Origin: a virus
Strand: one strand, 5' to 3'
Virus record (IMG/VR): IMGVR_UViG_3300014205_000222
Length of the DNA stretch: 64,000 nucleotides
In this document: positions 8,108-10,075 of the stretch, piece by piece
Numbering within the stretch: position 1 is the first letter of the stretch
How the letters are laid out: the number at the start of each line of letters is the position of its first letter
Program-made: the position numbers and the translations under genes
The notes under the pieces: model-generated
Databases searched by the model: none
Seen by the model: only the letters and a program-made list of their open reading frames with translations
What the model was told of the DNA's origin: nothing

Positions 8108-8126
8108 GACATAAGGTGTAAAGATG
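8108..8126 (+). promoter_or_regulatory. gene-junction cassette copy (AAGGTGTAAAGATG: SD + start)
   Basis: Same 14-mer recurs at 9361-9374 and 9899-9912 directly at start codons. Confidence 0.5.
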
Positions 8127-8375
8127 AGATACCCAACCAAAGACGAATTAAAACTTTTTAAAATTCTTCAAATGCTCGGATTTGACTCTGTTGATATGAC
8201 TTCGAATGATAATCGCATCGTCTATCAAAAAATAATTTATTTACTCCAAAATTACGGAGTGTCTTTGGGATATGGATATAAATGGTATATACGTGGTCCG
8301 TTTTCATCCGAACTACAACACGATTTAATAGGGATACATTATTTAATCCACGGTAAATATCCGGATATACATTGA
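8124..8375 (+). CDS. hypothetical protein (83 aa)
   Basis: ORF track; upstream ataAGGTGTAAAGATG junction motif. Confidence 0.45.
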   Translation: MRYPTKDELKLFKILQMLGFDSVDMTSNDNRIVYQKIIYLLQNYGVSLGYGYKWYIRGPFSSELQHDLIGIHYLIHGKYPDIH

Positions 8376-8432
8376 CATTCTTATAGGCAACGAATAAGGA
8401 AAAAAAGAGATTTGTAAAAGGTAAACCCTAAA

Positions 8433-8660
8433 ATGGAGTTGATTAGAATGGAGAGAAGCGAAGAGATCGAAGAAATTTGCGATATATGCGATCAATCTTC
8501 AGTAAGTGTTGAAGACGGAAATCAAATCTGTTTAAAATCTCCCGTCGAACATCCCTGCGGGAAAGACTCTATTGAAGATCAGCAGGATCGGGAAAACGGC
8601 ATATTTGAATGGTATTCCGAAACCGCAGATCTCAAAAAATGCCCGTTGGGTAAATGGTAA
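8433..8660 (+). CDS. acidic Cys-containing protein (75 aa)
   Basis: ORF track. Confidence 0.45.
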   Translation: MELIRMERSEEIEEICDICDQSSVSVEDGNQICLKSPVEHPCGKDSIEDQQDRENGIFEWYSETADLKKCPLGKW

Positions 8661-8666
8661 CCCCGT

Positions 8667-8695
8667 GATTGTAAAGAGTCAAGGTGAATGAAATG
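8667..8695 (+). promoter_or_regulatory. gene-junction cassette GATTGTAAAGAGTCAAGGTGAATGAAATG
   Basis: One of >=6 related copies (9013-9041, 9351-9374, 9734-9760, 9889-9912, 10048-10075) spanning stop of one gene, SD GGTGA and ATG of next. Confidence 0.5.
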
Positions 8696-9001
8696 AGGGT
8701 ATATCTTGTATGTCATGGGGGATATAATTCTTGCTCGCATTTAGGAATTTATTTATCCCGAGAAGCAGCTATTGCTCGGTGTATTGATAAGATCAAAGAG
8801 GAAATAAAAAACAACAACGAGCATGAGATCAAAACAATTAAAGAATTAAAAGATAATGTGGCAACAATAGATATTCGTAAGTATGAATATCAAGACTTGA
8901 ATGAGAAATTGCAGGCGGCTCTTGATAAAGGAGAGTTCAATGAAGGTGGTGGATCTATTGATCTACCGTGGATCGAAGAATTTGAGGTTGATTGTTCATG
9001 A
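8693..9001 (+). CDS. hypothetical protein (~103 aa)
   Basis: ORF track lists GTG start at 8684; ATG at 8693 lies 5 nt after AAGGTGA SD in the GATTGTAAA…GGTGA cassette. Confidence 0.45.
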   Translation: MRVYLVCHGGYNSCSHLGIYLSREAAIARCIDKIKEEIKNNNEHEIKTIKELKDNVATIDIRKYEYQDLNEKLQAALDKGEFNEGGGSIDLPWIEEFEVDCS

Positions 9002-9012
9002 ACTGGGAGAAG

Positions 9013-9041
9013 ATTGTAAAAAGTCAGGGTGAAATAAAATG
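9013..9041 (+). promoter_or_regulatory. gene-junction cassette GATTGTAAAAAGTCAGGGTGAAATAAAATG
   Basis: See 8667-8695. Confidence 0.5.
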
Positions 9042-9356
9042 ATTACGAGACAGGATCGATATCTTTTTGTTCAATTAATCAGGCGAAAAATAGGGATACA
9101 AACAGAAGAAGAGAGAACACGAGAAATAATATCCCGCCAAAGTCGTGAAAACATGCAACAACTTGCGCATATATTTGGTATCGACAGGTGGCAATACCGG
9201 TTGATATCGTGGTGGAAATATTGGCTTCTTCATAAAATGGGGCTTCATCAATCTCTTCTGGAATCAATACATGAAGGAACGCGGTCAAATGATGGGCGCG
9301 ATGCCGTAGATTTGTTGGAAGAAAGCAGGTATGACAGGTTTAATTATGAAGATTGA
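9039..9356 (+). CDS. hypothetical protein (105 aa)
   Basis: ORF track; cassette motif upstream. Confidence 0.45.
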   Translation: MITRQDRYLFVQLIRRKIGIQTEEERTREIISRQSRENMQQLAHIFGIDRWQYRLISWWKYWLLHKMGLHQSLLESIHEGTRSNDGRDAVDLLEESRYDRFNYED

Positions 9357-9374
9357 TTGTAAGGTGTAAAGATG
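9351..9374 (+). promoter_or_regulatory. gene-junction cassette GATTGATTGTAAGGTGTAAAGATG
   Basis: Contains upstream TGA stop, TAA, SD and ATG; near-identical copy at 9889-9912. Confidence 0.5.
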
Positions 9375-9554
9375 GCAAAAATCACTGATAAGAAAAAAGA
9401 TAGATGGCTATCCATGATATGGAAAAGCAGGGAGATTTACAGAAAAGTGTACGAAGAGATTATTGCTTGCGGTGTCACGGATGACCGAATCGATTCGTTA
9501 TCAAATCTCATCACAGGTTTTGCAGAAGCAGAAGAGGATATCGACAGATTGTAG
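9372..9554 (+). CDS. hypothetical protein (60 aa)
   Basis: ORF track; cassette motif upstream. Confidence 0.4.
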   Translation: MAKITDKKKDRWLSMIWKSREIYRKVYEEIIACGVTDDRIDSLSNLITGFAEAEEDIDRL

Positions 9555-9563
9555 GAGGCAAAG

Positions 9564-9740
9564 ATGGTTGTTCCAGAAGGCGACGGATTGGATGAGAAAG
9601 ATGGTATAATTGAACGCACTTGTGATCAATGCGAAGAGGGATCTAAAACTGGATTTGCCGAAACTTGTCCTTACGGAGAGGATGGGCATCTTATCTGTCC
9701 AAAGATAAAGGCAGCAATCGAAGTAAACGAGGGATTGTGA
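9564..9740 (+). CDS. acidic Cys-containing protein (58 aa)
   Basis: Manual ORF after gtaggaggcaaagATG. Confidence 0.4.
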   Translation: MVVPEGDGLDEKDGIIERTCDQCEEGSKTGFAETCPYGEDGHLICPKIKAAIEVNEGL

Positions 9741-9760
9741 ATGTCAAGGTGAGAACATGA
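9734..9760 (+). promoter_or_regulatory. gene-junction cassette GATTGTGAATGTCAAGGTGAGAACATG
   Basis: See 8667-8695. Confidence 0.45.
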
Positions 9761-9894
9761 TATGTGAAGAAACTGGAGAAGAATGTGATCCTAAAACAAA
9801 TCCCTTCTGTGGAGAGACAGACGATTGGTGTGTTGAGGCATTTGCTGAAGCGGTCAAAAATGGGGTACAGAGATTCAATCCGTTTAAAGATTGA
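9757..9894 (+). CDS. Cys-rich small protein (45 aa)
   Basis: Manual ORF MICEETGEECDPKTNPFCGETDDWC…; cassette motif upstream. Confidence 0.4.
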   Translation: MICEETGEECDPKTNPFCGETDDWCVEAFAEAVKNGVQRFNPFKD

Positions 9895-9912
9895 TTGTAG
9901 GGTGTAAAGATG
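9889..9912 (+). promoter_or_regulatory. gene-junction cassette GATTGATTGTAGGGTGTAAAGATG
   Basis: Near-identical to 9351-9374. Confidence 0.5.
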
Positions 9913-10068
9913 AATCTTGATTTGAAATGGAAATGCCCAGACTGTGGAAACAAATCCGAATATACGCTCTCAATAGAAAATGGAAATATAATCAGAGCGG
10001 AATGCCGGAACTGTGGATTTAAGAATGGTTTGCCAAGATCCATATTTGATTGTAAATTGTCAAGGTGA
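9910..10068 (+). CDS. zinc-ribbon protein (52 aa)
   Basis: Manual ORF MNLDLKWKCPDCGN…CRNCGF…; cassette motif upstream. Confidence 0.45.
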   Translation: MNLDLKWKCPDCGNKSEYTLSIENGNIIRAECRNCGFKNGLPRSIFDCKLSR

Positions 10069-10075
10069 AAAAATG
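10048..10075 (+). promoter_or_regulatory. gene-junction cassette GATTGTAAATTGTCAAGGTGAAAAAATG
   Basis: Motif partly encodes C-terminus (…DCKLSR*) of upstream gene. Confidence 0.5.

Follow-up and report, generated by a model that had tools for sequence, protein, structure and literature searches.

In T4-like phages, promoter-early stem-loop (PeSL) cassettes populate hyperplastic regions of the genome (Arbiol et al. 2010, PMC2839356; Comeau et al. 2014, PMC4122927). By analogy, they are the closest known system to the one described here, a short linker sequence that recurs at consecutive gene junctions in a 64,000-nucleotide stretch of viral DNA (IMG/VR virus record IMGVR_UViG_3300014205_000222; below, the window, meaning this whole stretch). 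As in the PeSL system, a short conserved motif recurs between one small, non-essential ORFan gene and the next in a variable region; related genomes (here, relatives of the window element) differ by insertions, deletions and replacements located at the motif; and the motif holds an expression signal, so that a transferred gene would stay expressed. The PeSL motif, however, is transcriptional and bacterial, a sigma-70-type early promoter with a terminator hairpin, whereas the linker has neither promoter geometry nor hairpin and is a stop/Shine-Dalgarno (SD)/start junction of translation, in elements whose hosts are probably archaea.

A second parallel comes from lambdoid phages, where gene-boundary linkers were reportedly proposed for modular exchange by Susskind and Botstein, by Juhala et al. 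in 2000 and by Clark et al. in 2001. There too, short homologies at gene boundaries could direct the exchange of whole genes, but the lambdoid linkers are sporadic and their role is disputed, whereas here one family occupies consecutive junctions and recurs across several elements. A literature search found no earlier description of the linker itself. We propose, with a probability of roughly 60%, that it is a conserved stop/SD/start junction that would keep promoter-less cassettes translatable and at the same time serve as a recombination point for shuffling them, in an array that is presumably an accessory, early operon of these viruses.

A preliminary description of the window, made from its letters, had reported a repeat at successive gene boundaries between positions 8108 and 10075. 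The repeat is present there and extends further, to 2344, 4654, 4776 and 10404-10434. Exact copies of GATTGTRR, each 17-27 nt 5' of an ATG, occur on the + strand at 8667, 9012, 9355, 9547, 9733, 9893 and 10048, that is, seven times in 1.5 kb (8667-10055), where the frequency in the remainder of the window predicts 0.23 copies (Poisson P=4.8e-9). Dinucleotide-preserving shuffles of 8000-10500 (n=2000) gave a mean of 0.40 and a maximum of 4, with 0/2000 reaching 7; over the whole window, 26 copies were observed vs 14.2±4.0 in shuffles. Outside the array the exact motif is also found at 4654 and 4776, and looser copies lie at 2344, 8409 and 10404-10434. A repeat finder independently recovered the junctions as direct-repeat families D1-D5, D8 and D9. 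With the looser copies included, the linker stands at 12 junctions, 8-9 of them consecutive and all in the block of small + strand genes. The window is part of a metagenomic virus-like element of at least 181,586 bp (JGI contig, metagenome 3300037067), of which our both-strand searches covered 73.7 kb; a search of this part for the pattern core, SD, ATG and open reading frame (ORF) found no true match at any - strand gene start. Likewise, GTCARGGTGA has four copies in the + block and GGTGTAAAGATG has three, with none of either in the - block, and strong SDs (GGAGG, GGTGA) that lack the core are widely used elsewhere in the window. The concern that the motif might simply be the SD consensus of an AT-rich genome therefore fails, given the enrichment of GATTGTRR over shuffles and its restriction to the + block.

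The linker is built in a set order: a core, GAT(T/C)TGTA(A/G), whose final three bases are invariably a stop triplet, an optional insert of ~8 nt (AAANNGTCA), an SD (GGTG or GGAGG), a spacer of 5-7 nt and the ATG. The linker measures 16-30 nt and is partly coding in many cases; the core lies 16-27 nt from an ATG preceded by a GGTG/GGAGG SD. Every copy has GGTG, GGAGG or GAGG 5-7 nt 5' of the ATG, within the 5-10 nt of a purine-rich anti-SD match. The two subfamilies distinguished in the preliminary description are both real: the short form reads GATTGTA(A/G)GGTGTAAAGATG and the long form GATTGTAAANNGTCA(A/G)GGTGA(N4-7)ATG.

Along the array, on the + strand throughout, the series opens with the right half of a short linker only (TAAGGTGTAAAGATG / TAAGGTGTAAAG-ATG, 8112-8126, without the GATTGT core; family D5), which starts the 83-aa gene 8124-8375. 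A degenerate linker (GATTTGTAAAAGGTAAACCCTAAA-ATG, 8409-8435; D8) lies 5' of the gene 8433/8448-8660, and a long-form linker (GATTGTAAAGAGTCAAGGTGAATGAA-ATG, 8667-8695), 93.5% identical (29/31) to a linker of the related locus L030, lies 5' of the gene 8693-9001. The in-frame end of this gene (VDCS-stop) is itself an additional core copy (GATTGTTCATGA, 8990-9001), 22 nt 5' of the next core, which belongs to the long-form linker of the gene 9039-9356 (GATTGTAAAAAGTCAGGGTGAAATAAA-ATG, 9012-9041). A public gene call, 8693-9032 (340 nt, not a multiple of three), covers both tandem cores (8990, 9012), as though it allowed for a frameshift, and both frames across it end in ...DC(S/KKSG)-stop. Four junctions follow in close succession: a short-form linker with the allele GATTGATTGTAAGGTGTAAAG-ATG (9351-9374; D4) 5' of the gene 9372-9554; a short-form linker (GATTGTAGGAGGCAAAG-ATG, 9547-9566), whose TAG is the upstream stop, 5' of 9564-9740; a long-form linker (GATTGTGAATGTCAAGGTGAGAAC-ATG, 9733-9759; D9), whose TGA is the upstream stop, 5' of 9757-9894; and a short-form linker (GATTGATTGTAGGGTGTAAAG-ATG, 9889-9912; D4) 5' of 9910-10068. 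Positions 9349-9374 and 9887-9912 match at 25/26 positions, and both carry GATTGATTGTA(A/G)G. The gene 10073-10291 is preceded by a long-form linker (GATTGTAAATTGTCAAGGTGAAAAA-ATG, 10048-10075) that reads DCKLSR-stop in frame and has 92.6% identity over 27 columns with a linker of locus L033, and the gene 10432-10638 by a variant linker (ATGTTGTAAATCTTGTAAGAGGTAAACG-ATG, 10404-10434; D8, D20) resembling the ATCTGTAAGAGGTAAAC allele of the relatives.

Three outlying linkers lie further 5' on the same strand: GATTGTCAGAGGTAAG-ATG (2344-2362), where the upstream gene reads VDCQR-stop; the short form GATTGTAAGGAGTAATA-ATG (4654-4673), through which the upstream gene reads (QIVR...), overlapping the next start by 20 nt; and the long form GATTGTGAAACAATAGGGGAAACAGA-ATG (4776-4804), whose in-frame reading is DCETIG.... 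Another repeated gene end, GATTTGATTTGA (DLI-stop), occurs early in the + block at 206-217 and 714-725, where it ends two different small genes; it resembles the GATTGATTGTAA allele plus extra T's.

The position of the upstream stop differs between junctions. The motif had been described as containing this stop, which is true within the core at 9351, 9547, 9733 and 9889 and within the SD at 2344, 10048 and 10404, but not at 8409, 8667 and 9012, where the gene stops 7-34 nt 5' of the core (at 8667 and 9012 the core is wholly 3' of the stop), nor at 4654 and 4776, where it stops past the next ATG. Stop-to-start gaps are 1-16 nt at eight junctions and 32-57 nt at three, and two genes overlap the next start. 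Upstream genes often end in ...DC(K/R)xx-stop; nevertheless, a conserved peptide is ruled out, as the core is read in differing frames or lies 3' of the stop. All three frames are used, giving Asp-Cys (2344, 4776, 8990, 10048), Ile-Val (4654) or Leu-stop (9547, 9733). Three reading frames, together with a stop before, in or after the core, indicate a nucleotide-level element that is anchored to the downstream SD and start.

Such an anchoring could reflect translation alone: the linker would be an optimized restart or coupling site, the breakpoints seen in relatives (below) would reflect selection for gene integrity, and the spread of the motif would be convergence on host ribosomes. The SD spacing common to all copies, the stop triplet abutting the SD and the short stop-to-start gaps at most junctions agree with this, and TA(A/G)GGAGGT is a near-full complement of the anti-SD at the 16S 3' end. 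The GATTGT part does not: it was not seen at the - strand gene starts of the window or in the non-array genes that were inspected in relatives, and strong SDs do without it elsewhere in the window. Moreover, GATTGT lies 5' of the SD, which, judging from the known terminus, would put it past the pairing reach of the 16S rRNA 3' end; on the same ground, the core as an extension of the SD was rejected. Idiosyncratic alleles such as GATTGATTGTAAGG are, in addition, common to unrelated elements, which points to common descent or exchange rather than to convergence. A purely translational role is thus an unlikely account of the whole linker. As for the translational-coupling signal proposed in the preliminary description, SD and ATG are present in every copy and the stop usually so, but translation in this genome does not depend on the GATTGT part, since no copy was found at - strand gene starts even though strong SDs are widely used.

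The linkers join an array of 11 small, mutually unrelated + strand genes of 43-105 aa (8124-10638): the ten genes already named (the second as 8448-8660) and 10297-10428, the junction before 10297 being the sole one in the array without a linker. Serial duplication of a gene cassette had been suggested as the origin of the repetition. The flanking proteins are not paralogous: in an all-against-all BLASTP of 44 proteins of the + block, the best match (E=0.003) involved CxxC zinc-ribbon residues only. A relic of tandem duplication, in which one ancestral gene was multiplied with its junction and the genes then diverged past recognition while the junctions were constrained, could explain near-identical neighboring junctions such as 9349-9374 and 9887-9912, but the proteins have no detectable similarity, their lengths and cysteine patterns differ, and in relatives the same linkers join clearly unrelated families (methyltransferases, ATP-grasp). 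We give this origin hardly any credence. Among 5.8 billion proteins, the 105-aa protein of 9039-9356 matches only itself and is an ORFan; a search of IMG/VR for relatives of 8693-9001 gave no match. Pfam searches with ten array proteins yielded only DUF3850, in the gene just upstream, and weak zinc-ribbon matches. A foreign origin of individual cassettes, considered from their GC content (31-44%), was dropped because the signal is too noisy. Just 5' of the first array gene lies a gap of 218 nt (7906-8123) with 51% GC inside a block of 38% GC; no ORF in it is convincing, and shuffled versions of it are predicted to fold just as well (z=-0.22).

Relatives carrying the linker were found in metagenomes. 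A scan with the long-form pattern returned 47 loci, mostly chance matches; L013, L029, L030, L033, L049 and L053 carry 1-4 linkers each (three in L013, four in L049), all 5' of an ATG. The linker from these loci led to L058, a 30-kb IMG/VR contig, and homologues of one cassette protein (91 aa, MRKVPLKL...) led to L059-L065, giving a total of ~45 linkers in ~9-10 distinct metagenomic virus contigs. IMG/VR scans with linker patterns derived from the window found nothing, or two chance matches within unrelated genes; two further variant patterns had no match, and a third re-found only L058. Core types in the relatives are GATTGTA(A/G) and ATCTGTA(A/G), their long form is GATTGTAAAACGTCAAGGTGA, mostly read DCKTSR-stop, and the allele GATTGATTGTA(A/G)G is common to the window (9351, 9889), L058 and L060. 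In DNA, the relatives and the window have nothing in common beyond the linkers, which are 92.6-93.5% identical over 27-31 nt. In protein, the R2K_3 ATP-grasp of the relatives is 70% identical over 265 aa to that of the window element, four small proteins common to both sides are 47-64% identical, and the 83-aa protein of 8124-8375 matches a portion of a 170-aa L030 protein at 54% identity. As judged from these comparisons, the main point beyond the preliminary description is that the linker is shared with otherwise unrelated contigs, in which it appears to mark cassettes that were inserted, deleted or reordered.

The cassettes of the relatives are promoter-less, lie in a single orientation and vary in content from contig to contig. 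Indels and replacements map to the linker in L013, L053, L030, L049 and L058, and the same cassettes occur in different order and with different neighbors in L013/L053, L049, L058, L059, L060 and L063. The shuffled cassettes encode MRIYCQ (48 aa), MSDNFR (57 aa), MDEEKL (52 aa) and MRKVPLKL (91 aa) proteins, a C5-methyltransferase of ~178 aa and R2K_3; L058 has two C5-methyltransferase cassettes and carries one cassette end in duplicate. A counter-defense role for the cassette genes of the relatives is suggested by the presence among them of orphan N6/N4 and C5 methyltransferases, a Lar-like restriction-alleviation protein and R2K_3. When pairs of relatives were compared by BLASTN, 9/20 block ends fell -2 to +8 nt from the core and 13/20 fell -11 to +8 nt from it, against a random expectation of 4%, and half of the block ends lay at most 30 nt 3' of the core vs 12% expected. 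These ends are not all independent, so that the nucleotide alignments weigh more; in the latter, sequences are unrelated as far as the core and identical from the core on. Linkers are identical at 22/22 nt where the adjoining cassettes are only 83-85% identical.

One site, ending in ACAACAGATTGTA, exists as three alleles within one sample series. In L053 it runs straight into AAACGTCAAGGTGA, and both L053 and L029 go on with AAACGTCAAGGTGAGAAAATG. In L013 a unit of 322 nt is inserted (GGAGGTAAACCT-ATG, a gene of 107 aa, ...GATTGTA), flanked by a 7-nt direct repeat of GATTGTA. In L030 the right flank differs, with divergence after GATTGTAANNCGTCAAG. For the MRIYCQ cassette, exchange at the right boundary lies within or after ATCTGTAGGAGG. 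The crossover point, directly after GATTGTA in L013, after GATTGTAANNCGTCAAG in L030 and at ATCTGTAGGAGG for MRIYCQ, is thus not fixed within the linker.

We suggest the following mechanism for a junction that serves both translation and shuffling. The linker would supply the last codons and the stop to any upstream gene and a ribosome-binding site to any downstream gene; the array would be transcribed polycistronically, with translation restarting at the linker. Because the same 8-28 nt stand at every junction, linkers could recombine with each other within one genome or between co-infecting relatives, probably by short homology and not by a dedicated enzyme, and whole cassettes would be inserted, deleted, duplicated or reordered with expression unbroken. 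Cassettes that retain the linker would stay exchangeable, which would account for the linker being conserved far better than the genes that it joins. The seemingly arbitrary GATTGT part would be kept by descent and by the exchange of linkers along with cassettes. Support for the latter comes from several other linker families of the relatives, which occupy the same position with a different 5' part: TTGACGTTTAATCGGAGG / TTGACGTTTAAT(C/T)GGAGG, ATAGAGGTGGATGTCA, GACTCGACCAG..AGG and ACATCAGTAGATAAGG. Several points weigh against this proposal. All the evidence for shuffling comes from relatives and none from the window element. Mosaic boundaries are expected at gene boundaries anyway, as selection removes events that break genes, and their coincidence with the linker alone is consequently no proof that the linker causes exchange. 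The indel ends of L013/L053 share just 7 nt of identity, which is short for ordinary homologous recombination. Finally, the other 5' parts fit hitch-hiking, yet the particular sequence may be arbitrary, and any molecular role of the GATTGT part is putative.

Exchange could alternatively be site-specific and follow an integron-like logic, a dedicated recombinase recognizing GATTGTA and integrating or excising circular cassettes. A 7-nt direct repeat of the core does flank the 322-nt cassette of L013, and the cassettes are promoter-less and in the same orientation. A small tyrosine recombinase gene (148-183 aa), in the orientation of the array, lies directly 3' of it in L059 (5234-5782), L060 (4582-5028) and L065 (1235-1786), all with PF00589, and probably in L033 (815-1261; contig orientation), which is a close match by sequence likeness. 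In integrons, cassette ends carry attC sites, imperfect inverted repeats of ~55-140 bp. The window junctions that have an intergenic gap measure 1-57 nt from stop to start, with no inverted repeats; no junction had a local inverted repeat, all 15 inverted pairs being 63-2285 nt apart. The junctions (9-37 nt) thus lack attC-like repeats, crossover points vary between L013, L030 and the MRIYCQ boundary, and the part of the window element that was searched (73.7 kb) yielded no recombinase homologue, TBLASTN with the relatives' tyrosine recombinase having no match there and the Pfam scan covering part of the window proteins; the recombinase of the relatives may simply be a viral integrase. Arrays of promoter-less, same-orientation, unrelated cassettes with a short conserved boundary core, differing in content among relatives, do recall integrons, but with no attC hairpin, no IntI/attI/Pc platform identified and no fixed crossover, the array is very probably not an integron proper. 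We consider site-specific exchange quite unlikely, and hold at similarly long odds a bolder version in which the linker is the recombination site of a dedicated archaeal-virus cassette-exchange system, with the 7-nt core GATTGTA, fused to a ribosome-binding site, standing in for attC hairpins. Such a system might be run by the small tyrosine recombinase adjoining the relatives' arrays, and if it were, the arrays would be programmable counter-defense stores of methyltransferases, Lar-like protein, R2K_3 and cysteine-rich ORFans.

The core could also act in RNA, as an operator or processing site at which a viral or host RNA-binding protein or endoribonuclease recognizes GAUUGUA beside the SD and represses, times or separates the cistrons. 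Precedents exist in T4, where RegA is a translational repressor of early mRNAs and RegB cuts in early SDs. The position of the core, fixed relative to the SD and not to the upstream stop, would suit such a role, as would a strand-specific motif limited to one probable temporal gene class. Yet no candidate protein was identified, no conserved RNA structure was found (an Rfam scan of the window at gathering thresholds gave only tRNAs and no family at the linker), and the several 5' parts that share the linker position in relatives are hard to reconcile with one sequence-specific factor. We regard an RNA operator as decidedly improbable.

Gene-by-gene promoters, for an archaeal host polymerase or for one encoded by the virus, are very improbable. 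Viruses with their own polymerase often have a short motif 5' of each gene. In the archaeal halovirus HF2, reiterated intergenic repeats of 29-58 bp, conserved among relatives as the linker is, carry promoters, with a BRE and an AT-rich TATA box ~26 nt 5' of the mapped start site (Russ et al. 2021, PMC8707807). The linker, in contrast, abuts the SD, a position incompatible with a promoter role: a TATA box at the core, 16-27 nt from the ATG, would initiate inside the gene. No conserved AT-rich element was found ~26 nt 5' of the linker, upstream sequences being unrelated between contexts. Sigma-70 promoter-like matches (54 vs 45.8±6.4 in shuffles) are not above shuffles and none is sense-aligned to a linker, and terminator-like matches number 8 vs 7.3±3.2 in shuffles. 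The motif also occurs in contigs of ~30 kb (L058, L060), which, if they are near-complete genomes, would be unlikely to encode a polymerase.

Other features of the relatives concern the surroundings of the array. At their ends the arrays have a decayed linker without a gene, ACATCAGT(T/G)(G/T)(T/C)(T/A)TAGAA(T/C)GT(C/A)A(G/A)GG, at 1105-1135 in L013 and 10842-10870 in L058 (both reverse strand), 5031-5056 in L059, 4286-4315 in L060 and 518-545 in L033. Homologous DNA 3' of this decayed linker in L013 and L058 indicates that the arrays occupy a single conserved locus whose content varies. In L059, L060 and L033 the recombinase gene is preceded by ~150 nt of conserved non-coding sequence. The TTGACGTTTAAT(C/T)GGAGG family joins genes 3' of the recombinase gene (L059 5787-6323; L060 5033-5048) and contains the long-form insert AAACGTCAA as an exact reverse complement, which could be due to chance or to a protein-binding site that works in either orientation. 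In L030 (reverse strand), a duplicate sequence at ~960-1750 and ~3100-3800 (ORF MRIFKSARNTRF..., with identical upstream 35 nt) flanks the homologue of 8124-8375 and resembles an insertion sequence that has entered the array.

Pieces identical to the window element occur in two Logan contigs of a single run and in an ENA assembly. The other three contigs recovered for the element, from three samples, are 100% identical over their overlaps, so no within-lineage variants are available. Window positions 7000-12000 had no BLASTN match among 50,697 deposited phage records. Positions 1-10973 hold ~45 tiny + strand genes, a block that continues ~2.7 kb further upstream in locus L008 and faces, convergently, a long run of - strand genes. 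The - strand part encodes 28-30 tRNA genes, a Ro60/TROVE protein, a class II CCA-adding enzyme, a primase-helicase and an SF2 helicase; the tRNA genes are clustered with the class II CCA-adding enzyme and Ro60/TROVE (36585-52742, - strand; 41598-43028, + strand; 45946-47472, - strand). A DUF3821 protein of 857 aa that carries the archaeal sorting signal PGF-CTERM (31073-33646, - strand; loci L005-L007) has its nearest genomic homologues (39-46% identity) in Methanomicrobiales and Methanoregulaceae assemblies. The top homologue comes from a 47-kb scaffold, JBAZKI010000010.1; its bin is labeled 'Patescibacteria', perhaps wrongly, and the scaffold may be a relative of the window element. L060 has an archaeal-type pilin domain, consistent with an archaeal host. 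Based on the DUF3821 protein family and the pilin domain, the window element and its relatives probably infect methanogenic archaea (Methanomicrobiales). If the host is a methanogen, the window element would be unusual among archaeal virus-like elements in its large size and its wealth of tRNA genes. Elsewhere on the - strand, three neighboring 62-aa genes are mutually unrelated, and two ~40-nt copies 252 nt apart (63707-63966) within the PKD-domain protein 62548-63981 are coding domain repeats, unrelated to the linker despite containing GATTGTGG.

Variable regions of tiny ORFan genes are the viral store of host-takeover and counter-defense functions, and the gain and loss of such small genes is known in detail for few bacteriophages only. 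In what are probably viruses of Methanomicrobiales, a linker acting at translation, and not a promoter/terminator cassette, appears to make small genes interchangeable. The pattern GAT[TC]TGTA[AG]..SD..ATG provides a sequence handle with which arrays can be found, cassettes delimited and candidate anti-defense genes of archaeal viruses collected. Finally, the linker offers a concrete test of what drives modular evolution, short shared junctions or random illegitimate recombination followed by selection.

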